Shown: in pieces, positions 5,126 to 16,786 of the stretch
Layout: each line of letters starts with the position of its first letter
Position numbering within the stretch: the first letter of the stretch is position 1
Source: Halorussus marinus
GTDB taxonomy: Archaea; Halobacteriota; Halobacteria; Halobacteriales; Haladaptataceae
Assembly: GCF_004765795.1 (NCBI RefSeq)
Contig: NZ_SBIV01000009.1
Location: 1 to 64,000, forward strand
Direction of reading: 5' to 3'
DNA length: 64,000 nt
Translations under genes and position numbers: made by a program
The notes under the pieces: generated by a model
What the model saw: only the letters and a program-made list of their open reading frames with translations
Databases searched by the model: none
Told to the model about the DNA's origin: nothing

Positions 5126-5533
5126 TCACTCCAGAGCGCGTTCGCGCCACGCCACCAGATCCGCCCGATCGCGGGTGTCCTCCGGGAGTTCGTCGAACCA
5201 CCCGGCGTCGGTGATCTCGCCGTCGGGGTCCGAGACTGTCGGCCGGGCCGACTCCGCGCGGGCTTCGAACAGCGGAAGCACGCCTCCCGTCGCGTGGTCC
5301 TCCCACTCGATGTCGACCCGTATCGACAGCGCGAGCCCGTCGAACTCGGCGTCGACGCCCGCCTCCTCGCCGAGTTCGCGCTCGGCGAGCGTCCGGAACC
5401 GCCGCCGGGAGACCCGACGCCGGTAGGTCCGTTCGAGGAAGTCCTCGTGGGCCTCGGTCAGTCGGTGGTAGACGCGCTCGGCGCGCTGGTCGACCCGGGT
5501 CGCGAGATACCAGAGGTCGTCGACCGCCGTCAT
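5126..5533 (-). pseudogene. NUDIX-family protein missing the first half of the Nudix box (probable internal in-frame deletion)
   Basis: MTAVDDLWYLA...RRRFRTLAE-RELGEEAGV...EITDAGWFDELP; the REUxEExGU half is perfect but G-x5-E is absent. Confidence 0.6.
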
Positions 5534-5746
5534 CGGTCGGGCGGTCGGGACGAGACGACTGGAACCGGGCGGCCGAACGGAGTGAGCGAAACGCTCAGGT
5601 GCCGATTGTACCCCGAGAGACCGAATAAGTCTTCGGTCACCCGGACGAAAGAATGGGCGCAGTTCGGCGCGATCGAGGGCCCTCGGAGCGGCCCCGAGCC
5701 GCGAGCAGGCCCAACGCTTTTGATAGCTTGCGGAGTCTGTGTAGAC

Positions 5747-6139
5747 GTGCGAAACGGTGCGATCCTCCTCGGCGGACTCGCGCAGGCGGTGGTCGTCGGG
5801 GTCCTCCTCGTGGTAATCCGGCCGCCGATGGCGGTCTACGCCGCGACCCCGGCGGTCGCCGGCGCGGTCGGCGGGCTCGCCAGCGACCGGTTCCAGTCGG
5901 AGTACGTCGACTCGGGCGGTGCAGGACTGGTCGGCGGGTTGCTGTCGCTCGTGGTCGTCGGGGCGGTCTCGTGGCGGAACTTGGCCGCGCTCCCGCGGGC
6001 GGTCCAGATCGACCTGACGCTGCTGACGGTGGTGTGGAGCTTCGTGGCGCTCGCGTTCCTGTTGCCGGCCTGTCTGTTCGTCAGCGTGCTGGTCGGGCAG
6101 TTCGGCGTCGTCTTGCGGGAGACGCTGTCGGCCCAGTGA
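5747..6139 (+). CDS. Small hypothetical membrane protein (about 4 TM)
   Basis: GTG 5747; hydrophobic C-terminal part of ORF 5123..6139; TTTGATA upstream. Confidence 0.65.
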   Translation: MRNGAILLGGLAQAVVVGVLLVVIRPPMAVYAATPAVAGAVGGLASDRFQSEYVDSGGAGLVGGLLSLVVVGAVSWRNLAALPRAVQIDLTLLTVVWSFVALAFLLPACLFVSVLVGQFGVVLRETLSAQ

Positions 6140-6203
6140 ATCGTCGGGCGGCGTCGCGGTCGAAATCGGGCCGCTTTTACCCCGCGCCGGGTTACTCGAA
6201 GCC

Positions 6204-6386
6204 ATGAGCTTCGACAAGGAAGACCGCGTCGTGTTGCACGACGAACACAGCGACTACGACGGGCAGGAAGGCGAAATCACGCAGGTCATGGACACGATGT
6301 TCGGCGACAGCACGTACACCGTGAGCTTCGAGGACGGCCAGGAGACCGGCATCCCCGAGGACTCGCTGGAAGCCGCCGAGGAGTAA
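6204..6386 (+). CDS. Small acidic SH3-like protein (DUF1918-like), 60 aa
   Basis: Highly acidic; TTTTAC about 27 nt upstream; T-tract downstream. Confidence 0.8.
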   Translation: MSFDKEDRVVLHDEHSDYDGQEGEITQVMDTMFGDSTYTVSFEDGQETGIPEDSLEAAEE

Positions 6387-6420
6387 CGACTTTTTCACTC
6401 CCCGGTACGTACGCCTCCCA

Positions 6421-6846
6421 ATGGCAGAAGTCCCGTTCCACTACGTCGATCTGCGCGCGTTCTGCTACGCCACCGAAGACGACAAGCGCGTCGAGCAGGC
6501 GCTCCGGACGTTCCTCCCCGAGGAGATCGAGATCGAGCGCGCCGAGAGCGAGGGCCACCACGGCGACCGCATCGTGGTGCTGTCCTCGCGGGTCGAGACC
6601 GCCGACGAGATGCGCCACGTCCTCTCGAAAGTGGCGGAGCTCCCGGACGCAGAGAGACTGCTCTCAGAACTCGACGAGCGAGTCGACGACAACTGCTCGC
6701 TTTTCTTGCGGTTCGACAAACAGGCGGCCTACCGCGGGGAGATCGCGCTCGGGGAGGGCATCACGTTCCGTGCGAAAGTCGAGGCCTACCCCGCCGAGAA
6801 GGCGGCCGCGGTCGAGAACGCCCGCGAGGCGCTCTCGGCGCTGTGA
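6421..6846 (+). CDS. Archaeal RNA-binding protein (DUF54 family)
   Basis: FCYATEDDKRVEQAL, EGHHGDRI, LFLRFDKQAA. Confidence 0.85.
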   Translation: MAEVPFHYVDLRAFCYATEDDKRVEQALRTFLPEEIEIERAESEGHHGDRIVVLSSRVETADEMRHVLSKVAELPDAERLLSELDERVDDNCSLFLRFDKQAAYRGEIALGEGITFRAKVEAYPAEKAAAVENAREALSAL

Positions 6847-7056
6847 GGGCGGACGATCGGGGACTTCGGCCCGGTTCGGGACGCCGTCTCTCGACGACGG
6901 TCGGGCGAGGGCGATACCGTCACCTCCGGTTCGTGAGTATAAGGTCCCTTAATCAAACATAGTGTCTTAGATGACGTTGACGTCTTGCGGTTTTGCTCGC
7001 GGCGAGCGCGATCGGCGACTCGAATCGTCGGGTCGCGATCTGTCGCAGCGGTACGC

Positions 7057-7063
7057 TTAAATA
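7057..7063 (+). promoter_or_regulatory. TATA box of the leuA transcript
   Basis: TTAAATA 27 nt upstream of ATG 7090, i.e. leaderless spacing. Confidence 0.65.
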
Positions 7064-7089
7064 GGAGAGTGACCCGAGGTAGGAGTACA

Positions 7090-7170
7090 ATGTCCGACAA
7101 CGACATGTCCTCCTCCGGTACCAGCCGGGGGGATCGAGTTCTTCGAGGGCACGTTAGCTTCCACTACTGA
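7090..7170 (+). CDS. Leaderless upstream ORF overlapping leuA out of frame (26 aa); possibly the true leuA N-terminus before a +1 shift
   Basis: MSDNDMSSSGTSRGDRVLRGHVSFHY*; contains G6 at 7127-7132 and GTT CTT CGA at 7138-7146. Confidence 0.55.
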   Translation: MSDNDMSSSGTSRGDRVLRGHVSFHY

Positions 7171-8317
7171 CGTCGACTCCGCGCGGGTCTTCGATACGAC
7201 CCTGCGCGACGGTGAACAGGCACCGCGGACGTCTTTCTCCTACGACGAGAAACGCGCCATCGCCGCGACCTTGGACGACATGGGCACCCACGTAATCGAG
7301 GCTGGGTTCCCGGTCAACTCCGACGCCGAGTTCGAGGCCGTCAGCGACATCGCCGCGAGCACGAACACGACCGTCTGCGGGCTGGCCCGCGTGGTCGACA
7401 AGGACGTGGAGGCCGCACTCGACTCCGGCGTCGAGATGGTCCACGTCTTCGCCTCGACCAGCGACGTCCAGCTGGAAGACTCCATGCACGCCACCCGCGA
7501 GGAGGTCGTCGAGCGCTCGGTCGCGGCGGTCGAGCGCGTCACGGAGGCGGGCGCGACAGCGATGTTCTCGCCGATGGACGCCACCCGAACCGACGAGGAC
7601 TACCTCGCCGAGGTGGTCGAGGCGGTCTCGGAGGCGGGCGTCGACTGGATCAACATCCCCGACACCTGCGGGGTCGCCACGCCGGCGCGGTTCGCCGAAC
7701 TGGTGACGACGGTCGACGAGCACACCGACGCGCGCATCGACGTCCACACCCACGACGACTTCGGGATGGCGTCGGCGAACGCGGTCGCCGGCTTCGAGGC
7801 CGGCGCCGATCAGGCGCAGGTCTCGGTCAACGGGATCGGCGAGCGCGCGGGCAACGCGGCCTACGAGGAGGTCGTGATGACCGTCGAGAGCGTCTACGGC
7901 GTCGACACCGGTATCGACACGACCCGGATCACCGAGCTGTCGCGGGCGGTCGAGGAGTACAGCGACGTCCCGGTGCCCGCCAACAAGCCGATCGTCGGCG
8001 ACAACGCGTTCGCCCACGAGAGCGGCATCCACGCCGCGGGCGTCATCGAGAACTCAGACACCTTCGAGCCGGGCGTGATGACTCCCGAGATGGTGGGGGC
8101 AACGCGGGAGTTCGTCCTGGGCAAACACACCGGAACGAACTCGGTCCGCAAGCGACTGGAGGATTCGGGCTTCGAGCCGACCGACGACGAGGTCCGGGAG
8201 ATCACCCGCCGGGTGAAAGACTACGGCGCCGAAAAGAACCGCGTCACGACGACCGACCTCGAACGGTTCGCCCGCGAGGCCGGCGTCGCCCGCGAGGAAA
8301 CGGAGGTCAGCGCCTGA
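7133..8317 (+). CDS. leuA: 2-isopropylmalate synthase (LeuA family, short form without the C-terminal regulatory domain); start codon unresolved
   Basis: IEFFEGTL...VFDTTLRDGEQ, HTHDDFG, GIGERAGNA, HESGIH; no ATG/GTG/TTG between the in-frame stop at 7070-7072 and TTG 7271. Confidence 0.9.
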   Translation: MEFFEGTLASTTDVDSARVFDTTLRDGEQAPRTSFSYDEKRAIAATLDDMGTHVIEAGFPVNSDAEFEAVSDIAASTNTTVCGLARVVDKDVEAALDSGVEMVHVFASTSDVQLEDSMHATREEVVERSVAAVERVTEAGATAMFSPMDATRTDEDYLAEVVEAVSEAGVDWINIPDTCGVATPARFAELVTTVDEHTDARIDVHTHDDFGMASANAVAGFEAGADQAQVSVNGIGERAGNAAYEEVVMTVESVYGVDTGIDTTRITELSRAVEEYSDVPVPANKPIVGDNAFAHESGIHAAGVIENSDTFEPGVMTPEMVGATREFVLGKHTGTNSVRKRLEDSGFEPTDDEVREITRRVKDYGAEKNRVTTTDLERFAREAGVAREETEVSA

Positions 8318-8435
8318 TGGCGCCTCGCCGGTTCGCCCCCGTCCGACAGCCGCGCGCGGCGGTCGCCGTCGTTCCGGCGGGTCGCCGGCCCGGCGTGGCA
8401 ACCCCGCGCGCTTCGGGCAACCGTTGCCGAGCGGG

Positions 8436-8447
8436 CAAGAGTTATTA
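8436..8447 (+). promoter_or_regulatory. BRE/TATA of an internal ilvB promoter
   Basis: CAAGAGTTATTA, with TTATTA 30 nt upstream of ATG 8477. Confidence 0.6.
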
Positions 8448-8476
8448 CAGTGGGGCCCGGTACCATTCGACTACAG

Positions 8477-8560
8477 ATGCGACGGTCACTCGCCACTCGG
8501 CCGCTGGCCCGCACGGGGAGCGGCGTGGCCGTCGAGCGCGTGATTATTGTAGGGGCTTGA
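8477..8560 (+). CDS. Putative ilv leader peptide (27 aa) with tandem Val/Ile codons
   Basis: MRRSLATRPLARTGSGVAVERVIIVGA*; codons GTG ATT ATT GTA at 8540-8551. Confidence 0.65.
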   Translation: MRRSLATRPLARTGSGVAVERVIIVGA

Positions 8561-8580
8561 GCCCCTACTACACCTCTTTT
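8549..8580 (+). terminator. Hairpin plus U-tract in the ilvB leader (putative attenuator)
   Basis: GTAGGGGC-TTGA-GCCCCTAC (8549-8568) followed by TACACCTCTTTT. Confidence 0.6.
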
Positions 8581-8699
8581 CCGACCCGACTCGCCGCATC
8601 GATTCCGAACAGCACGCCGCGCGCTCGACAGATGAATTCGACACACGACGCCAGAACCCAGACGTATCGCACACATCCAACCCCGGAGGTGAGCCGACC

Positions 8700-10487
8700 G
8701 TGAGCGACCCGGTCAGCCCATCGTTCGACGCCGAAACCGAAGCCGAAGCCGAGTTAGAGCCAGAGCCCGGCGAGGACCCGTCGGCGACCGACGCCGAGCC
8801 GGGTCGGACCGGCGCCCACTCGGTCGTCGCGGCGCTCGAAAACGCCGGCGCGGAGGCCATGTTCGGCGTGCAGGGCGGTGCGATCATGCCCGTCTACGAC
8901 GCGCTGTACGACTCGGACCTGCGCCACGTCATGATGGCCCACGAGCAGGCCGCGGCTCACGCCGCCGACGCCTACGGCATCGTCTCGGGCACGCCGGGGG
9001 TCTGTCTGGCGACCTCCGGACCGGGCGCGACCAACCTCGTGACCGGGATCGCGGACGCCGACATGGACTCGGACCCGATGGTCGCGCTCACCGGGCAGGT
9101 GCCGACAGACTTCGTCGGCAACGACGCCTTCCAGGAGACCGACACCACCGGCGTCACCGCCCCGATCACGAAGACGAACTACTTCGCCGACCACGCCGAC
9201 ACGGTCGGCGACACCGTTGGGGAGGCGTTCGCCTACGCCGCCGCGGGGCGACCGGGCCCGACGCTGGTCGACCTCCCCAAGGACGTGACCCAAGACGAGA
9301 CCGCGGTCGAGCCCGGGGACGCGACCGTCCCGGACACCTACGACCCCCAGACTGAGGCCGACGACGAGGCGGTCGCCGAGGCGGCCCGACGGCTCGAACG
9401 CGCCGAAAAGCCCGTCGTCCTCGTCGGCGGCGGCGTCATCAAGGGCGACGCCACCGAGGAGTTGCGGGCGTTCGCCCGCGAGTACGAGATCCCGGTCGCG
9501 ACCTCGATGCCCGCGGTCGGCGCGTTCCCCGAGGACGACGACCTCTCGCTGGAGATGGTCGGGATGCACGGCACCGGCTACGCCAACATGGCGACGACCC
9601 ACTGCGACGTGATGCTCGCGGTCGGCACCCGGTTCGACGACCGGCTCACCGGCGGGGTCGACACGTTCGCGCCCGAGGCCGAGGTGCTCCACGTCGACAT
9701 CGACCCCGCGGAGATCTCCAAGAACGTCACGGCCGACGTGGCGCTGATCGGCGACGCCGCCACCGTCCTCGACCAACTCGACGCCGAGATGGAGCGGGCC
9801 CCTGACTGCCGAGAGTGGCGCTCGCAGTGCTGGACGTGGAAGAGCGAGTACCCGATGGACTACGCCACGCCCGACGACGAGCCCCTCAAGCCCCAGTTCG
9901 TCGTGGAGGCGTTCGACGAGGCGACCGGCGACGACACCATCGTCACCACCGGCGTCGGCCAACACCAGATGTGGGCGGTCCAGTACTGGACGTACACCGA
10001 ACCCCGGACGTGGGTCTCCTCTCACGGGCTCGGGACGATGGGCTACGGCCTGCCCGCGGCCATCGGCGCGAAGTTCGCCGCCGACGACGACCAGCAGGTC
10101 GTCTGCTTCGAGGGCGACGGCTCGTTTTTGATGACGATGCAGGAGCTGTCGGTCGCGGTCCGCGAGAACCTCGACATCACCGTCGCGGTGCTCAACAACG
10201 AGTACATCGGGATGGTCCGACAGTGGCAAGACGCCTTCTACGACGGCCGCCACTCGGCCTCGGAGTACAACTGGTGTCCCGAGTTCGAACCCCTCGCCGA
10301 GGCGTTCGGCGCGCAGGGCTTTACCGTCTCGGACTACGACGAGGTGGCCGACACCGTCGAGGCCGCGCTGGCCTACGACGGCCCGTCGGTCGTCGACGTC
10401 CGCATCGACCCCGCGGAGAACGTCTACCCGATGGTCCCGAGCGGCGGGGCAAACGGGAAGTTCGCCCTCTCGGAGGACCAGCTATGA
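8700..10487 (+). CDS. ilvB: Acetolactate synthase large subunit
   Basis: FGVQGGAIMP, HEQAAAHAADAY, TSGPGATN, GDGSFLM..NN ThDP motif; SD GGAGGTGA at 8685-8692. Confidence 0.97.
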   Translation: MSDPVSPSFDAETEAEAELEPEPGEDPSATDAEPGRTGAHSVVAALENAGAEAMFGVQGGAIMPVYDALYDSDLRHVMMAHEQAAAHAADAYGIVSGTPGVCLATSGPGATNLVTGIADADMDSDPMVALTGQVPTDFVGNDAFQETDTTGVTAPITKTNYFADHADTVGDTVGEAFAYAAAGRPGPTLVDLPKDVTQDETAVEPGDATVPDTYDPQTEADDEAVAEAARRLERAEKPVVLVGGGVIKGDATEELRAFAREYEIPVATSMPAVGAFPEDDDLSLEMVGMHGTGYANMATTHCDVMLAVGTRFDDRLTGGVDTFAPEAEVLHVDIDPAEISKNVTADVALIGDAATVLDQLDAEMERAPDCREWRSQCWTWKSEYPMDYATPDDEPLKPQFVVEAFDEATGDDTIVTTGVGQHQMWAVQYWTYTEPRTWVSSHGLGTMGYGLPAAIGAKFAADDDQQVVCFEGDGSFLMTMQELSVAVRENLDITVAVLNNEYIGMVRQWQDAFYDGRHSASEYNWCPEFEPLAEAFGAQGFTVSDYDEVADTVEAALAYDGPSVVDVRIDPAENVYPMVPSGGANGKFALSEDQL

Positions 10488-11152
10488 CCGAAGGCCTCCA
10501 AGGTCCGGCGCCCGACGAGCGCCCACACCCGGACGGTCGGCGCACCAAGCAGGGAACCCGGATCGACCCCGAGGTCGAGGCCGAGCAGGACACCCGGACC
10601 GCGGTCGTCTCCGCGCTGGTCGAACACGAGCCCGGCGTGCTCGCGAAGGTCTCCGGGCTGTTCTCCCGGCGCCAGTTCAACATCGAGAGCCTGACGGTCG
10701 GACCGACCACCGTCGAGGGCAACGCCCGGATCACGCTCGTGGTCGAGGAGACCGACGACGGCATCGACCAGGTCAAAAAGCAGGTCGAGAAGCTCCGGCC
10801 CGTGATCCAGGTCGGCGAGCTCGACGACGACGCGGTCTGTGCCGAACTCGTGGTCCTGAAAGTCCGGGGCGACGAGCCCGACAAGGTCCACGCGATCACC
10901 CAGATGTACGAGGGCCAGACCCTCGACGCCGGCCCGCGGACCATCACGGTCCAGATCACCGGCGACCAGCAGAAGATCGACGACGCGGTCGACGCGTTCC
11001 GGCAGTTCGGCATCATCGAGATCGCCCGGACCGGCCAGACCGCGCTCGCCCGCGGCGACACGCCGACGACGCCCGGCGAGGAGCCGGGCCACGAGAAAGC
11101 CGCCGAGAAGACGAGAAAAGACGACACCCGAACCGGAACATACGATGACTGA
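10484..11152 (+). CDS. ilvN: Acetolactate synthase small (regulatory, ACT) subunit
   Basis: [32 protein letters not shown] overlap with ilvB. Confidence 0.95.
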
Positions 11153-12200
11153 CGAATTCGACACCGAGATCTACTACGACGACGACGCGAACAGCGCGAA
11201 GATAGACGACCGGACCGTAGCCGTACTCGGCTACGGGAGCCAGGGACACGCCCACGCCCAGAACCTCGCCGACAGCGGGGTCGACGTGGTCGTGGGGCTC
11301 CGCGAGAGCTCCGCGTCGCGGAGCGCCGCGGAGGCCGACGGGCTCCGCGTGGCGACGCCGGCCGACGCCGCCGCCGAGGCCGACGTGGTCTCGGTGCTGG
11401 TGCCCGACACGGTCCAGCCCGCGGTGTACGACGACATCGAAGACGGGCTGGAACCCGGCGACACCCTCCAGTTCGCCCACGGCTTCAACATCCACTACGG
11501 CCAGATCGAGCCGCCCGAGGACGTCGACGTGACCATGGTCGCGCCCAAGTCCCCGGGCCACCTCGTCCGGCGCAACTACGAGAACGACGAGGGGACCCCG
11601 GGCCTGCTGGCAGTGTATCAGGACGCGACCGGCGAGGCCAAGTCCGAGGCGCTGGCGTACGCGAAGGCCATCGGCTGTACGCGCGCGGGCGTCGTCGAGA
11701 CCACGTTCCGCGAGGAGACCGAGACCGACCTGTTCGGCGAGCAGGCGGTGCTCTGTGGCGGCGTCACCGAGCTCATCAAGACCGGCTACGAGACGCTTGT
11801 CGACGCCGGCTACTCGCCGGAGATGGCGTACTTCGAGTGTCTCAACGAGATGAAGCTCATCGTCGATCTGATGTACGAGGGCGGGATGCGCGAGATGTGG
11901 GACTCGGTGTCGGACACCGCCGAGTACGGCGGGCTGACTCAGGGCCCCGAGATCATCGACGAGAACGTGCGCCAGAACATGGAGGAGACGCTCGAAGGCG
12001 TCCAGAACGGCGAGTTCGCCCGCGAGTGGATCGTCGAGAATCAGGCCGGCCGACCGGCCTACCACCAGCACAAGCAACGCGACATCGAACACGAGATCGA
12101 GGACGTCGGCGCCGAGCTCCGCGACCTGTTCGCGTGGAGCGAAGACGAGGAGACGGCCGACGAGGAGACCGAACAGGAGCGAGTGAGCGCAGATGACTGA
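11145..12200 (+). CDS. ilvC: Ketol-acid reductoisomerase
   Basis: [37 protein letters not shown]. Confidence 0.97.
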
Positions 12201-12474
12201 CACACACACCACGGACCGATCGATGCGAGACGTGAGCCACACCCACCCGTACGGCGACCACGGCGCGGTAAACCGACCGTTCGAGCGCGGCCCGATCGTC
12301 GTCGCGGACGGCGGCGAGAGAGTCGACGAGTCCGAATCCGCCGACGACGAGGAGCGATCCGAATCGCCCGAGAAGATGAAAGACGTCGACCACACCCCGC
12401 CGCGGGACGCCGAGAGCGCGAATCGGGTCTTCGAGCGCGGCGGAGCCGAAGAGCCCGTAGAGTCCGAAGAATGA
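12193..12474 (+). CDS. Small acidic hypothetical protein inside the ilv-leu operon
   Basis: 93 aa overlapping the ilvC end; internal repeat (MRDVSHT..FERG / MKDVDHT..FERG). Confidence 0.75.
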
Positions 12475-12545
12475 ACGTACGATCCGCTTTTCCGGTCGCA
12501 ACGGCGAACAGCCGACGGCGTCCCACGGCGGAGGGGTCCCGATGA
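12471..12545 (+). CDS. Possible 24-aa bridging mini-ORF
   Basis: [28 protein letters not shown] overlaps with both the upstream stop and the leuC start. Confidence 0.35.
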
Positions 12546-13963
12546 GCGAGGGGACCCTCTACGACAAGGTGTGGGACCGCCACAAGGTGACCACGCTCCC
12601 GACCGGACAGGACCAGCTGTTCGTCGGGCTCCACCTCGTCCACGAGGTGACAAGCCCGCAGGCGTTCGGGATGCTTCGGGAGCGCGACATGGAGGTCGCG
12701 TATCCCGAGCGCACCCACGCGACCGTCGACCACATCGTCCCGACCGACGACCTCGACCGGCCCTTCGAGGGGGCGGCCGAGGAGATGATGTCCCAACTGG
12801 AGGAGAACGTCCGGGAGGCCGGCATCGAGTTCTCGCATCCCGGTACCGGCGATCAGGGCATCGTCCACGTCATCGGCCCAGAGCAGGGGCTCACCCAGCC
12901 CGGCATGACGGTCGTCTGTGGCGACAGCCACACCTCCACGCACGGCGCGTTCGGCGCGCTGGCGTTCGGGATCGGCACCTCCCAGATCCGGGACGTGCTG
13001 GCGACCGGTACCGTGGCGATGGAGAAAAAAGACGTCCGACGCGTCCGGGTCGACGGCGAGCTCGGCGAGGGCGTCGAGGCCAAGGACGTGATCCTGGAGA
13101 TCATCCGCCGGCTCGGCACCGACGGCGGCGTCGGCTACGTTTACGAGTACGCCGGCGAGGCGATCCGGAACCTCGACATGGAGGGCCGGATGAGCATCTG
13201 CAACATGTCGATCGAGGGTGGCGCCCGCGCGGGCTACGTCGAGCCCGACGAGACCACCTACGAGTGGCTCCGGGAGACCGACGCCTTCGAAGACGACCCC
13301 GAGCGCTTCGAGGAGCTCAAGCCCTACTGGGAGTCGATCGCGTCGGACGACGACGCCGAGTACGACGACGAGGTCGTCATCGACGGCTCCGCGCTCGACC
13401 CCGTGGTGACGTGGGGCACCACGCCCGGACAGGGCGTGGGGATCGACGACCCGATCCCCGCCCCGGAAGACCTCCCCGAGGACAAACAAGATACCGCCCG
13501 GCGCGCACAGGAGCACATGCGCGTCGAACCCGGCGAGACGATGGCGGGCTACCCGATCGACGTCGCCTTCCTGGGCTCGTGCACCAACGCGCGACTCCCG
13601 GACCTCCGGCGGGCCGCCCGCGTGGTCGCGGGGCGGGAGGTCCACGACGACGTGCGCGCGATGGTCGTGCCCGGCAGTCAGCGCGTGAAGGCCGCCGCCG
13701 AGCGCGAGGGCCTCGACGAGGTGTTCCGCGAGGCCGGCTTCGACTGGCGGGGCGCGGGCTGTTCGATGTGTCTCGGGATGAACCCCGACCAGCTCGAGGG
13801 CGACGAGGCGTGTGCCTCCTCGTCGAACCGCAACTTCGTGGGCCGACAGGGGAGCAAGGAGGGCCGGACGGTGCTGATGAACCCCCGGATGGTCGCCGCG
13901 GCCGCGATCGAGGGCGAGGTCACGGACGTCCGCGACCTCCCCGAGACGGAGGTGAAAGCATGA
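12542..13963 (+). CDS. leuC: 3-isopropylmalate dehydratase large subunit
   Basis: [33 protein letters not shown]. Confidence 0.97.
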
Positions 13964-14586
13964 CCGAGGACGTCGAGACCGTCGAGCGAGTCACCGGGAC
14001 GGGCGTGCCCGTCCGGGGCAACGACATCGACACCGATCAGATCATCCCCGCCCGGTTCCTGAAAGTCGTCACCTTCGACGGGCTGGGCCAGTTCGTCTTC
14101 CAGGACGTGCGGTTCACCGACGACGACGAGCCGAAAGACCACCCGTTCAACGAGGATCGGTTCCGCGACGCCTCGATCCTCGTGGTCAACGCCAACTTCG
14201 GCTGTGGCTCCTCGCGCGAGCACGCCCCGCAGGCGCTCAAGCGGTGGGGCATCGACGCCATCGTCGGCGAGAGCTTCGCGGAGATCTTCGCGGGCAACTG
14301 CCTCGCGTTGGGGGTGCCGACCGTGACCGCCGATCAGGCGGAGATCGAGGCGCTTCAGGAGTTCGTCGACGAGAACCCCGACGCCGAGATCGACGTCGAC
14401 GTGGACGACGAGACCGTCTCGTACGGCGACCGCGAGATCGACGCGACCGTCGACGACGCCCAGCGCCGGGCGCTCGTCGAGGGCGTCTGGGACACGACCG
14501 CGCTGATGAAATCGAACGCCGAGGCGGTCGCGGAGACCGCCGCGAGCCTGCCGTACATCGAGGCCGGCGCGGGAGGCGACGCGTGA
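13960..14586 (+). CDS. leuD: 3-isopropylmalate dehydratase small subunit
   Basis: [24 protein letters not shown]. Confidence 0.97.
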
Positions 14587-15575
14587 CCGAGACGATCGCG
14601 GTCGTGCCCGGCGACGGCATCGGCCGGGAGGTCACCCCCGCGGCCCGCGAAGTGCTTGCGGCGGTCGATCCGGACTTCGAGTTCGAGACGGCCGAGGCGG
14701 GCGACGAGGTGGCCGAAGAGACCGGCGAACCGCTCCCCGACGCGACCCGCGACCTCGTCGCGAGCGCGGACGCGACGCTGTTTGGCGCCGCCGGGGAGAC
14801 CGCCGCGGACGTGATCTTGCCGCTCCGGCGCGCGGTCGAGTCGTTCGCCAACGTCCGGCCCGTCCGGGCGTACCCCGGCACCGACGCGCTCCACCCCGAC
14901 ACCGATCTGGTCTTCGTCCGCGAGAACACCGAAGGCGTCTACGCGGGCCACGAGACCGAGATTGCGCCGGGCGTAACGACCCTGACACGGGTCGTTACCG
15001 AGGCGGCGTCCGAGGAAATCGCGCGTTACGGCTTCGAGTACGCCGCCGATCGCGAGAAGAGCGTGACCATCGCTCACAAGGCGAACGTGATGCGGACGAC
15101 CGACGGCCTGTTTCTGGAGACCGCCGAGGCGGTCGCCGACGAGTTCGACGTGCCCTACGACGACGCGCTGATGGACGCGCTGGCGATGCATCTGGTCCAG
15201 CGCCCCGAGGAGTACGACGTAGTGGTGTGTCCGAACCTCGCGGGCGACGTGCTCTCGGACCTGGCGGCCGGTCTCGTCGGCGGACTCGGCCTGTTGCCGA
15301 GCGCGAACGTCGGCCCCGAGCGGGGCGTGTTCGAGCCGGTCCACGGCACCGCGCCAGACATCGCCGGCGACGGCGTCGCGAACCCGAGCGCCGCGATGCT
15401 GTCGGCCGCGCTCCTGTTAGAGTACCTCGGCCACGACCGGGCGGGCGAGCGGGTCCGAAGCGCGGTCGAACAGACGCTCTCGACCGGGCCCCACACGCCT
15501 GATCTGGGCGGGTCGGCGACGACGCGAGACGTGACTGACGCGGTGTTGGCGTCGCTCGCGGACTCGGAGAAGTAG
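14583..15575 (+). CDS. leuB: 3-isopropylmalate dehydrogenase
   Basis: [37 protein letters not shown]; operon context. Confidence 0.95.
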
Positions 15576-15597
15576 ACTGTTCTCGCGACCGGCGAAA

Positions 15598-15831
15598 CTA
15601 CCGGAGCGGCTCGCGCCCGCCGATGAGGTTGGTCGTATCGACTGTTTCGGCGCGCGCGCCGCCCTTCTTGACCTCGGTGGCTGTCATGCACTCGAGACAG
15701 CCGAACACTTCGTTGTGGTTGTTCCCGAAGACGCGCGCGAAGTCCCGCGTCACGAACGAACCGCAGCTCTGGCACCGGTTTTCCGCCATCGTGTCGTCGC
15801 CGTTGGTGAGTCTGTTGTCGGTCGTGGTCAT
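15598..15831 (-). CDS. Small zinc-ribbon protein (CxxC-FARVFG-CxxC type)
   Basis: CQSCGSFVTRDFARVFG...CLEC; alternative start at 15790. Confidence 0.8.
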   Translation of the reverse strand: MTTTDNRLTNGDDTMAENRCQSCGSFVTRDFARVFGNNHNEVFGCLECMTATEVKKGGARAETVDTTNLIGGREPLR

Positions 15832-16049
15832 GCGTAGCGATAGTTACACGCCACTAGAGGCACTTTGTTATCCAGTACCTACACCCCCGTAATCAACCGC
15901 TACCGCGACTGGTAACCGGCTGTTACGGTACGTTCCGACGTTCCCCGGACTCCGGAAACAGCGATCATAATTTAAGTTCGCGATCGGGGAAAGCAGTAGG
16001 CTCGGACTTCCCCCGATTGCTTAACTGTGAAGACGGCCTACTCTCGGCG

Positions 16050-16199
16050 ATGCCCGAGATCCAAGTCGACGCGGAAACGATCGAACGGCTCGACAGCCTC
16101 CAGACAGAGGACGAATCGTACGACGAACTCATCAACGAGCTCATCAACATCTACGAGGCCGAGGAGCTGACCCTGTTTCACAGCGGCGACGAGGTGTAG
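16050..16199 (+). CDS. Small acidic ribbon-helix-helix/antitoxin-like protein (49 aa)
   Basis: MPEIQVDAETIERLDSL...ESYDELINELI; TTAACT about 25 nt upstream. Confidence 0.75.
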   Translation: MPEIQVDAETIERLDSLQTEDESYDELINELINIYEAEELTLFHSGDEV

Positions 16200-16786
16200 C
16201 GGGCGAGCACCGTCTCGCCCGCCCGGACGGCGTCGCCGCGTTCGACCGCGACGTCCGCGCGCTCGACCGACGCCGGCAGGAACACGTCCGCGCGGCTCCC
16301 GAACGAGATGTGGCCGAGTCGGTCGCCGCGCCCGAGGCGGTCGCCGGCCTCGACGTAGGGGTGGATGCGGCGCGCGAACGCGCCGGCGATGAGCGTCACC
16401 TCGTGGTCGTCGAACCGGACGTGGACCTTCTCGTTGCGGTCCGACTCCTTGGTGAACGCCGGGCGATGCTTGCCCGGCTCGTGGTCGACGGCCTCGACCT
16501 CGCCGCCGATCGGCGCGCGGTTGACGTGGACATCGGTCACGTTCATGAACACGCCGACCCGGACCCGGTCGCCCTCCTCACGGACGACCGACACGCGACC
16601 GTCGGCCGGCGCGAGGACGCCGTCGCCCGCGGGCGAGCGGTCCGGATCGCGGTGGAACGCGAGCACCGCCGCCGCCAGCGCGAGCGCCGCGAGGCTCCCG
16701 AGCGGCGAGACCACGACCGCCGGGACGGCGAGCGCGAGCGGGACCGCGGCGTAGCGCCACGCTCCCGGGGCGAATCGTCGCCCCAT
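16178..16786 (-). CDS. psd: Phosphatidylserine (archaetidylserine) decarboxylase proenzyme
   Basis: FHRDPDR, APADG, FMNVTDVHVNRAP, FGSR pyruvoyl cleavage site. Confidence 0.92.
   Translation of the reverse strand: MGRRFAPGAWRYAAVPLALAVPAVVVSPLGSLAALALAAAVLAFHRDPDRSPAGDGVLAPADGRVSVVREEGDRVRVGVFMNVTDVHVNRAPIGGEVEAVDHEPGKHRPAFTKESDRNEKVHVRFDDHEVTLIAGAFARRIHPYVEAGDRLGRGDRLGHISFGSRADVFLPASVERADVAVERGDAVRAGETVLARYTSSPL

Follow-up and report, generated by a model that had tools for sequence, protein, structure and literature searches.

A conserved leader element precedes ilvB in haloarchaea, far beyond what chance would give. It contains a tiny gene situated before the genes for Ile/Val/Leu synthesis and carrying Ile and Val codons at its end, and it looks, from its sequence, like an amino-acid sensor read by the ribosome, comparable to those of bacteria but differently constructed. 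The arrangement comprises a TATA box, a leaderless ORF of 22-52 codons ending in Ile-Val-Gly, a GGGG/CCCC hairpin whose loop holds the stop codon, and then a G-poor tract. It was found at 146 of 150 haloarchaeal ilvB loci (46 of 48 genera), these loci being the 150 with the best scores among 205 matches from 201 genomes. A relaxed pattern matched 192 of 201 genomes by row count, compared with 34 of 201 for the reversed control. Alignment A1, which contained wrong stretches in L007 and L019, was excluded from all counts.

An earlier sequence-only reading of the window (the whole 64,000-nt stretch of Halorussus marinus DNA analyzed here) had proposed an ilv attenuator and an alignment of ilvB upstream regions as its check; a leaderless upstream ORF with an Ile/Val-rich end is indeed kept at the 146 loci. 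The leaderless ORF, the branched-chain control codons, the start site and a mapped RNA end within the leader have stood; the proteobacterial ilvGMEDA/ilvBN wiring has not. The bridge ORF, the internal ATG, the leuA frameshift leader and the Arg sister element described below go beyond that reading.

The leader ORF and its promoter

The following features of the window concern the leader promoter, the leader ORF and the downstream genes.

8417..8427 (no strand): palindrome GCAAC-C-GTTGC just 5′ of the BRE, a possible transcription-factor site; present with up to two mismatches at 47 of 145 loci, in 45 of them at -57 or -60 from the ATG
8435..8447 (+): BRE-like element and TATA box of the internal leader promoter, identified by conserved position, the start site (TSS) of an ortholog and a step in RNA depth
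8477..8560 (+): leaderless leader ORF encoding MRRSLATRPLARTGSGVAVERVIIVGA followed by a stop codon, ortholog of HVO_1509; in-frame ATG at 145 of 146 loci (GTG in one), 22-52 codons
8540..8551 (+): control codons GTG ATT ATT GTA, identified by codon conservation
8700..15575 (+): operon ilvB-ilvN-ilvC-(93-aa ORF)-leuC-leuD-leuB, which the leader would control

The TATA sequence TTATTA was confirmed at 8442-8447; 35 nt separate its first base from ATG 8477, which opens a 27-aa peptide. When TATA-anchored ATGs were located irrespective of frame, all 140 shared the frame of the Ile-Val codons, and this conservation of frame speaks for translation of the leader ORF. Upstream of its last codons the peptide is unconserved. 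The codon at position 0 is Ile at 143 of 145 loci (both ATT and ATC occur) and Val at the other two, and position +1 is Val at 145 of 145. Ile and Val together make up 24% of the eight codons before this motif, compared with 5% in the preceding part of the ORF and 5-8% when the other frames are read; Val to Ile and Ile to Leu replacements are seen outside the motif set. Typically three to five of the last seven codons specify branched-chain amino acids (BCAA). In the window, Val or Ile accounts for six of the last 11 residues, and the A/T-ending codons are as atypical as had been claimed: in seven flanking genes ATT is used for 1 of 87 Ile codons and GTA for 5 of 256 Val codons. This rare codon is favored at the control site, with ATT found at 121 of 146 loci. 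We infer that the leader switches in response to Ile and Val.

In Haloferax volcanii, HVO_1509 is named 'uncharacterized'; published supplements place its TSS 3 nt 5′ of the ATG, a leaderless start (PMC4983044), and a leader RNA 3′ end 47 nt beyond the stop codon (PMC7237163). At locus L138, RNA depth rose at the leader ATG in four out of four runs, from upstream levels approximately 12-50 fold lower in three of them and from 0 to 300 in the fourth. Judged by read depth, most ilvB RNA comes from the leader promoter. The ratio of ilvB to leader depth was 0.13, 0.44, 0.78 and 1.02 over four runs, for which growth conditions are not stated, and in three runs of one study fragment ends accumulated where the G-poor tract ends. 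Several observations count against an attenuator. Depth did not fall at the mapped 3′ end but approximately 70-125 nt beyond it, near the ilvB start, and run X24 showed no fall at all. HVO_1509 is listed as undetected by Ribo-seq and MS in rich medium, and its start has no row among the entries listed in another Ribo-seq table. Consultation of TSS, Term-seq and Ribo-seq data, as had been advised, thus supplied the start and the RNA end in an ortholog, while translation of HVO_1509 went undetected in two datasets.

No Rfam covariance model matched over the leader (positions 5500-16500 of the window, E up to 5), and Pfam and NCBIfam contained no family for the leader peptide or the bridge peptide. 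In exact peptide look-ups none of three peptides from the window and one of seven from relatives were on record. When genomes were scanned strictly for additional members of the family, the ilv leader was the sole find; looser scans added argG and unconvincing matches. Extra pattern matches in other genomes were mostly due to chance, the exceptions being second ilvB copies and one duplicated leader. In non-halophile Halobacteriota, short ORFs were screened for four or more Ile/Val among their last 10 codons, and no such leader was seen before ilvB at 18 of 18 loci; the single match to the screen, at L291, was without the leader architecture. The leader was likewise not seen at loci where a full-length leuA abuts ilvB.

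RNA structures and the mapped RNA end

The predicted structures and the tracts that follow the leader stop codon are as follows.

8480..8534 (+): 5′ stem inside the leader ORF (8480-8489 with 8525-8534), identified by partner-swap energies
8549..8568 (+): G-run/C-run hairpin, its loop containing the stop codon at 139 of 146 loci; stem of 5-11 bp
8569..8585 (+): G-poor C/A/U tract; 5% G versus 24% in the following 34 nt, and no more than a single G in 35 of 46 genera
8595..8607 (+): CGCATCG and a short T-run, equivalent of the mapped RNA 3′ end (Ile+61); motif at 124 of 146 loci
8613..8629 (+): 3′ arm of a long helix with 8520-8540, identified by pairing and partner swap; lineage-level, not class-wide

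The hairpin is the one universal structure of the leader. In the window it is a perfect 8-bp stem with TGA in the loop, as described earlier; the CTCTTTT said to follow it directly does not, TACAC intervening and the run of four T beginning 8 nt past the stem. Because T runs are short (within 25 nt of the hairpin none exceeds 2 at 105 of 146 loci) and approximately 40 nt separate the stem from the RNA 3′ end mapped downstream, the proposal that this hairpin acts as an intrinsic terminator was not supported. A terminator scan found nothing there. The core pairs of the hairpin are invariant, so that no covariation is seen within the set (one double change occurs, in L200), and covariation therefore says little here.

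An unstructured G-poor tract, as in factor-dependent (Rho/FttA-type) attenuators, is present after the stop codon. In the 7 nt after the CGCATCG-type motif at least three T were found at 59 of 124 loci and none at 31 of 124, the latter counting against the attenuator. Two other roles considered for the CGYAYCG motif were rejected: a matched landing codon for ribosome hopping, since by eye no co-variation with the take-off codon was visible, and a third promoter, since it has no TATA and its spacing to the ATG is 34-37 nt.

All the helices listed in the sequence-only reading exist in the window: 8480-8489 pairs with 8525-8534 with one G-U, and both the 10-bp 8531-8540/8620-8629 and the 8-bp 8520-8527/8613-8620 pairings are perfect. 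Over 46 genera, the 5′ stem was more stable with cognate than with non-cognate partners (-22.4 versus -19.1 kcal/mol, p=0.0002), and it reappears with differing sequences in five family/genus alignments. The long helix is weakly shared across genera (p=0.007 in one of six windows; p=0.009) and its 3′ arm lies past the mapped end. As for the role of competing antiterminator assigned to these helices, nothing conserved competes for the 3′ arm of the hairpin (partner swap p=0.67), and with no conserved competing helix across genera the antiterminator model was rejected. The complementarity of CACCTC (8571-8576) to the ilvB Shine-Dalgarno (SD) sequence GGAGGTG is genuine in the window, and its occurrence is local; CACCTC occurs at 5 of 146 loci and swapping of tail and SD gave p=0.89, which rules out conserved SD sequestration.

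The leuA leader, the bridge ORF and argG

The leader lies between leuA and ilvB, in a region with the following additional features.

7057..7062 (+): TATA box TTAAAT of the leuA leader transcript, 33 nt 5′ of ATG 7090
7090..7170 (+): leaderless leuA leader ORF of 26 aa; leuA goes on in the +1 frame, with a putative +1 slip at the conserved GTT CTT C (7138-7144)
7136..8317 (+): leuA (2-isopropylmalate synthase) without the allosteric domain, its conserved N-terminus having no in-frame start
8317..8703 (+): bridge ORF of 128 aa, identified by frame conservation, in the -1 frame relative to the leader ORF; its ATG overlaps the leuA stop and its TGA overlaps the ilvB GTG
8632..8703 (+): internal ATG in the bridge frame (23-aa ORF) with a stop overlapping the ilvB start; at 128 of 146 loci, mostly 83-92 nt past the Ile codon
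8685..8703 (+): ilvB SD and GTGA start/stop overlap; RTGA at a candidate ilvB start at 146 of 146 loci, GGAG within 20 nt at 87 of 146

GTTCTTC was found, with a constant frame offset, at every one of the 117 loci that hold the 5′ end of leuA. The TATA-anchored ATG is in the leader frame at 115 of these and in the leuA frame at 4. Judged by its reading frames, leuA seems to depend at all 117 loci on a +1 slip, located at a Leu codon. The out-of-frame start of haloarchaeal leuA2 (HVO_1510) has been reported, with the speculation that ribosomes slip when Leu is lacking (PMC8305020).

Around the leader lies the bridge ORF, frame-locked yet sequence-free, which runs from the leuA stop to the ilvB start; this nested arrangement is new here. 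The bridge starts at -1 to +12 from the leuA stop at 146 of 146 loci, and its frame is identical and open past the motif at 145 of 146, across 44 spacer lengths. It ends exactly at the ilvB start at 126 of the 146 and within -10 to +15 of it at 136. Among genus representatives, the frame is open past the motif in 46 of 46 and up to the exact overlap in 43 of 46, versus 6.1 expected from shuffles. In the four leader copies without an upstream leuA the bridge never reaches a start-overlapping stop: three stop at +59 to +71 and one continues in the ilvB frame. No translation of the bridge ORF was seen. At locus L170 the ilvB ATG itself occupies the site of the internal ATG.

The gene argG is preceded by the same architecture with Arg codons at 30 of 30 loci; Arg accounts for 120 of 300 last-ten codons and 73 of 563 earlier codons. 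According to published data the arg leader RNA ends 74 nt past its stop codon, and the small ORFs called with harringtonine include the arg leader peptide, which also has Ribo-seq coverage. The arg leader shows no frame lock to argG (11/10/9 over the three frames). The identity of the control codons tracks the pathway product, with Ile/Val/Leu before ilvB and Arg before argG.

Proposed mechanism and its alternatives

We consider it on balance probable that the leader is a ribosome-read Ile/Val attenuator of haloarchaeal design, with termination of the U-tract/FttA type and a bypass via the bridge under Leu starvation, i.e. an OR gate. The internal promoter would start a leaderless RNA at the leader ATG, as shown in a relative. 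With ample Ile/Val, the ribosome would get to the stop codon in the hairpin loop and depart, the hairpin would fold and the G-poor tract would be exposed; transcription would then stop at a short T-run approximately 60 nt past the Ile codon. The RNA end itself has been mapped, and its presumed cause is U-tract/FttA (aCPSF1) termination, not a hairpin terminator of the bacterial kind. When Ile/Val are scarce, the ribosome would stall at ATY-GTA, cover the G-run and remain coupled to the polymerase, blocking termination, and the read-through RNA would load ribosomes at the internal ATG, from which they would be passed to ilvB by the stop/start overlap. When Leu is scarce, the +1 slip would yield LeuA and the same ribosomes would reinitiate on the bridge ORF, cross the attenuator and be delivered to ilvB; since they would cross in another frame, Leu hunger would bypass the Ile/Val switch. 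The argG leader would be the same switch with Arg codons. Stalling normally uncouples the ribosome from the polymerase and favors termination, so the blocking step needs a stalled ribosome that stays coupled over approximately 60 nt; that archaeal coupling is backed by little direct evidence counts against this step. FttA acts on U-rich RNA via Spt5, in parallel to Rho via NusG (PMC13681488), and FttA/aCPSF1 is a nuclease recruited by Spt5 (PMC13681488; PMC7515710).

The same sensor could have a translational output. The vacant leader would pair with the region before the internal ATG, a stalled ribosome would open it and the short ORF would couple to ilvB, RNA ends being secondary products of polarity or decay of untranslated RNA. 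We regard this as unlikely, while giving it more weight than the explanations that follow. The near-constant distance of the internal ATG agrees with it, as do the long helix ending 2 nt 5′ of ATG 8632 in the window, the weak partner-swap signals given above and the fact that depth drops close to the ilvB start and not at the mapped end. An alternative start has been called in published data 5 nt 3′ of the internal ATG, but the GTG that the call names is absent from that place. Moreover, the cognate pair tops its row in only 1-3 of 46 genera, the helix is missing in two of five alignments (f5 and g3), a third (g4) shows only a different downstream fold, and in the window the part 8520-8530 survives a modelled stalled ribosome. 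The classical bacterial attenuator of the sequence-only reading, in which the G/C hairpin is the intrinsic terminator and the alternative helices the antiterminator, we find improbable. It would account for the universality of the hairpin, whose 5′ arm a stalled ribosome would cover, and termination by hairpins is possible in H. volcanii (59% at one tested hairpin; PMC7237163). Here, however, the stem has no U-tract, the mapped end is displaced from it, its 3′ arm lacks a partner and the stop codon lies inside the loop, so that a terminating ribosome covers the hairpin too.

A hungry-codon frameshift, in which the ribosome stalled on the leader would shift by -1, enter the bridge frame and read on to ilvB, has the leuA leader with its putative +1 slip as precedent, and the -1 frame is open from motif to ilvB at 136 of 146 loci. 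It is nevertheless very improbable: read from the sequence, there is no slippery site for tRNA re-pairing, the frame is lost in leader copies without an upstream leuA, and the arg leader is not locked to argG. We give equally little credence to the absence of any amino-acid sensing, where a constitutive leaderless ORF or small hydrophobic-tailed peptide would load ribosomes or stabilize the 5′ end and a DNA-binding factor at the palindrome would regulate. The failure to detect HVO_1509 translation and the recurrence of the palindrome fit such a case, but control codons that become Arg before argG in an unchanged architecture, a peptide unconserved outside its last codons and the preference for rare codons speak against it. 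Least probable of all is opposite polarity or transcriptional interference, where a stalled ribosome would bring about termination and a promoter further downstream would be repressed by read-through. Uncoupling does promote factor-dependent termination, and a second TATA lies approximately 32 nt before argG in 19 of 30 arg leaders; no second TATA is found before the ilv internal ATG or ilvB, and since the leader promoter supplies most ilvB RNA, termination upon starvation would close the pathway when it is needed.

The proposed Ile/Val attenuator of haloarchaeal design can be compared with known systems. Enterobacterial ilvL (ilvGMEDA) and ivbL (ilvBN) are SD-led leaders with at least 10 control codons and a four-segment switch with an intrinsic terminator; they share Ile/Val(/Leu) control codons before acetolactate synthase, whereas the haloarchaeal leader is leaderless, typically has the few BCAA codons described above and lacks the four-segment switch. 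In the Rho-dependent tnaC and mgtL attenuators the position of the ribosome on the upstream ORF sets access of the termination factor to a G-poor tract, as we propose here. To our knowledge Archaea have no Rho, and the factor would be FttA/aCPSF1 instead. Mycobacterial leaderless polycysteine sORFs are translational attenuators that unmask an SD sequence; they too are leaderless sensor ORFs with codons matching the pathway product, but SD masking is unconserved in the haloarchaeal leader. Features are also shared, as far as the available parts of the reports describe them, with the actinobacterial ilvB attenuators, the M. tuberculosis ilvB1 'LVVI' uORF (PMC13236596) and the Corynebacterium ilvBNC uORF (PMC10272879, PMC11857589): the ilvBNC transcript opens with a short uORF that has three to four BCAA codons, including the control codon GUA, near its end, and RNA ends lie in the leader. 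Theirs, by the same partial accounts, consist of an antiterminator and a Rho-independent, U-tailed terminator, neither of which is conserved in the haloarchaeal leader; the latter differs in its stop within the hairpin loop, its RNA end approximately 40 nt past the stem and its nesting in the bridge ORF. The leuA2 report concerns the same operon and the same speculated slippage on Leu lack; in the portions of it available to us the slip site is unnamed, ilvB and attenuation are absent from the main text and HVO_1509 is absent from the supplement (PMC8305020).

More tentatively, and with somewhat less confidence than in the attenuator itself, Halobacteriales may possess their own family of ribosome-read attenuators (Ile/Val-ilvB and Arg-argG) that set FttA/aCPSF1 termination without an antiterminator, with Leu integrated by the leuA +1 frameshift and the bridge into a purely ribosomal OR gate. 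This gate may have arisen in place of the lost allosteric domain of LeuA. The bridge ORF provides a clear case of an open frame under selection whose protein is not, and the reading would give HVO_1509 and smORF361, two small ORFs so far anonymous, a function. The leader occurs throughout the order, including H. volcanii, a genetic model in which its start and end have been mapped, and archaeal attenuation and the role of FttA in it become testable with a 150-nt reporter insert.

Conservation of the Ile/Val leader

The window is haloarchaeal (genome GC 66.9%), and every feature listed in the sequence-only reading was found in its place.

Features of the leuA-ilvB region
Gene order: leuA (to 8317), ilvB (8700), ilvN, ilvC, 93-aa ORF, leuC, leuD, leuB
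8317-8703, + strand, bridge ORF; its ATG overlaps the leuA stop and its TGA the ilvB start
8477-8560, + strand, leaderless leader ORF of 27 aa, with control codons at 8540-8551
8549-8568, G4/C4 hairpin
8632, internal ATG in the bridge frame, opening a 23-aa ORF that ends on the ilvB start

Analysis of 201 Halobacteria genomes detected ilvB in all of them. Among the best 150 of 205 ilvB matches, ATTGTAGGGG was present with two or fewer mismatches in 146 loci, covering 46 of 48 genera, and its first nine bases were exact in 121. Related genomes are not independent, and genus-level counts are the fairer measure. The four loci lacking the motif comprise two degenerate versions, one leuA-type leader in front of ilvB, and one additional ilvB copy whose leader has Ile-Ile-Gly instead. 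A relaxed pattern matched 192 of the 201 genomes and a reversed control 34, as counted among the matches listed. Forty of 45 named haloarchaeal loci carry the motif; of the others (L192, L196, L200, L209 and L211), L192 extends only 135 nt upstream of ilvB, L200 has a double change that preserves the stem, and leuA adjoins ilvB in L209 and L211. A screen of 18 loci from non-halophile Halobacteriota did not show the leader, and Rfam gave no match covering it.

An ATG in frame with the motif is found in 145 of 146 loci, and all 140 ATGs chosen solely by a TATA-like box at -34 to -25 share that frame, which is kept although the ORF varies from 22 to 52 codons. This bears out the proposal of a conserved leaderless uORF with Ile/Val codons across Halobacteria. 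Of the eight codons before the motif 24% encode Ile or Val, as against 5% further upstream in the ORF and 5-8% in the two remaining frames (46 genus representatives). The Ile codon of the motif is ATT in 121 loci and ATC in 23; outside the set, variants exchange one branched-chain codon for another. The control codons are indeed atypical, ATT accounting for 1 of 87 Ile and GTA for 5 of 256 Val codons in flanking genes.

Several other arrangements were observed. In genome G146 (L118) a leuA-type leader replaces the Ile/Val leader before ilvB. Second ilvB copies in L208, L154 and L133 retain an Ile-Ile-Gly leader, with Ile-Ile-Gly repeated three times in L208. A hairpin motif of similar type (loop GCAT) is repeated in L151 and L155, from one genus, away from amino-acid genes; by the screen applied it is not a leader. 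A palindrome upstream of the BRE (8417-8427), fixed in position in about one third of loci, may be a regulator site. The 93-aa ORF (12193-12474), which overlaps the ilvC stop and matches nothing in Pfam or NCBIfam, may be another coupling ORF; in L152 a second ilv leader copy precedes a short homolog of it, without ilvB.

RNA structure and transcripts of the leader

The G4/C4 hairpin is the sole universal helix, with the stop codon within its loop in 139 of 146 loci. The covariation expected of it was not found because its core is invariant. A 5' stem within the leader ORF recurs using different sequences (p=0.0002). The postulated switch of competing helices is not conserved, the 3' arm of the hairpin having no partner (p=0.67); the long helix (8520-8540 with 8613-8629) gave a weak signal across genera (p=0.007 in one of six windows, and p=0.009), the cognate partner being best of its row in 1-3 of 46 genera. 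Pairing of CACCTC with the ilvB Shine-Dalgarno sequence likewise fails, CACCTC occurring in 5 of 146 loci (tail versus SD, p=0.89). CTCTTTT does follow the hairpin, but its T4 run begins 8 nt past it; a terminator scan over the leader found none, and the longest T run past the stem is at most 2 in 105 of 146 loci, contrary to a U-tailed terminator. The conserved features 3' of the hairpin are a G-poor tract of 17 nt (5% G versus 24% in the next 34 nt) and, in 124 of 146 loci, a CGYAYCG motif, often followed by T's.

The H. volcanii leader peptide (locus L138) is the database entry "uncharacterized protein HVO_1509". In the accessible data of PMC4983044 its leaderless start maps 3 nt upstream of the ATG. 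We mapped raw RNA reads from four runs of two studies, growth conditions unspecified, to L138. Depth rose at the leader ATG in all four (upstream/leader 0/307, 70/2132, 23/1144 and 6/67), in agreement with the predicted start site. The available tables of PMC7237163 place an RNA 3' end 47 nt past the HVO_1509 stop, which on L138 is 61 nt past the Ile codon and directly after CGCACCG-TTTTC; intergenic RNA ends are described there as a T stretch finishing at C. Fragment ends accumulate where the G-poor tract ends in three runs of one study, where library bias is possible.

The ilvB/leader depth ratios were 0.13, 0.78, 0.44 and 1.02. Depth drops some 70-125 nt beyond the published 3' end, near the ilvB start, and shows no drop in run X24. 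This profile speaks against a simple termination picture; a 152-nt RNA would probably be under-sampled in such libraries. Fragment ends and a patch of reads from the opposite strand cluster 0-30 nt into ilvB (L138:434-500, three runs) and may reflect a decay boundary, polarity or an artefact of the libraries. Ribosome footprints, predicted on the leader, did not appear in the published material available: HVO_1509 is recorded as undetected by Ribo-seq or MS in rich medium (PMC10117724), and the part of the PMC7261190 start table at hand has no entry at its start. In that table ilvB has two alternative start calls, 5 nt and 35 nt 3' of the internal ATG; the GTG named for both is absent at either place.

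The bridge ORF and leuA

All 146 loci have a start codon at -1 to +12 relative to the leuA stop. In 145 of them this start opens the bridge in the leader's -1 frame, uninterrupted across the leader, with spacers of 44 different lengths; the end of the bridge coincides with the ilvB start in 126 loci and falls between -10 and +15 of it in 136. The exact overlap is reached in 43 of the 46 genus representatives, where shuffles predict 6.1. Because the product is Arg/Pro-rich with 7% acidic residues and matches no Pfam or NCBIfam family, selection appears to act on the frame and not on the protein. Four leader copies without upstream leuA have lost the bridge and arg leaders show no frame lock, which ties it to leuA and not to a leader frameshift. 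The internal ATG is present in 128 of 146 loci, mostly 83-92 nt past the Ile codon, and in L170 the ilvB ATG itself occupies this position. In the short internal ORFs (8632-8703 and orthologs) a GTATCG-like word (Arg-Tyr-Arg) is often repeated; it looks like the motif at which the RNA ends.

The conserved N-terminus of leuA has no in-frame start codon. In 117 of 117 loci GTT CTT C lies inside a leaderless ORF (7090-7170) with leuA in +1, which suggests a +1 frameshift into leuA under Leu hunger with GTT CTT C as putative slip site; slippage when Leu is scarce has already been speculated upon (PMC8305020, accessible text). The median bridge length, 117 codons, is similar to that of the LeuA allosteric domain, and the bridge may, speculatively, sit in its place. 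In Halorutilales (L209:807-2396) LeuA retains this domain and overlaps ilvB directly, with no leader, possibly the ancestral state. Locus L211 likewise has full-length LeuA abutting ilvB without a leader.

Arg sister element and proposed mechanism

A scan of the same genome located matching architecture with Arg-Arg codons upstream of argG (G000:C2:539208-539405). In the best 30 of 121 argG loci (L251-L280), a TATA-anchored ORF with at least two Arg among its last ten codons was present in all 30; Arg takes 120 of 300 last-ten codons versus 73 of 563 earlier, the fold test placed the stop in a hairpin loop in 21, and 19 have a second TATA upstream of argG, together with an AT-rich spacer that may hold factor sites. 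The L279 peptide is smORF361 among harringtonine-called starts in the available part of PMC7261190; it has Ribo-seq coverage, and an RNA 3' end lies 74 nt past its stop (PMC7237163, available tables).

For the Ile/Val leader the promoter, the leaderless start, the conserved reading frames, the control codons and one mapped 3' end are established, and it would work like a leader-peptide attenuator. Bacterial ilv attenuators, as outlined in the accessible text of PMC13236596, have a U-tailed terminator and an antiterminator; in the haloarchaeal leader neither is conserved. With Ile/Val plentiful, the ribosome would depart at the loop stop and expose the G-poor tract, and transcription would end at the T-run, likely via FttA/aCPSF1, a nuclease that cleaves U-rich RNA and is brought in by Spt5 as NusG brings in Rho (PMC13681488; PMC7515710, available parts). 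With Ile/Val scarce, a stalled ribosome would cover the G-run and block termination. Ribosomes would load at the internal ATG of the read-through RNA and couple to ilvB; termination-reinitiation occurs in haloarchaea. Leu hunger would bypass the switch by way of leuA and the bridge ORF. Since stalling usually favours termination, the scheme is weakest in requiring coupling to be kept up for about 60 nt. We give this termination-based version slightly better than even chances; that the sensor has a translational output is improbable.

A "leuA-Halobacteria" motif is said to come from Weinberg 2017 and a trp leader was reportedly proposed in Methanothermobacter; the former is absent from that main text and from our literature search, the latter did not surface in it, and either may bear on priority. 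The literature searched, with most subscription papers outside reach, describes no haloarchaeal ilv or arg attenuator. Already known are the annotated HVO_1509 ORF and its ends in public tables, which in the parts available carry no regulatory reading.

The Ile/Val leader is a real, order-wide element, distinguished by its presence in a model organism and by its nested wiring. Judged from these comparisons, the ribosome very probably senses branched-chain amino acids on it, and the strongest argument for sensing is that codon identity tracks the pathway product within one architecture.
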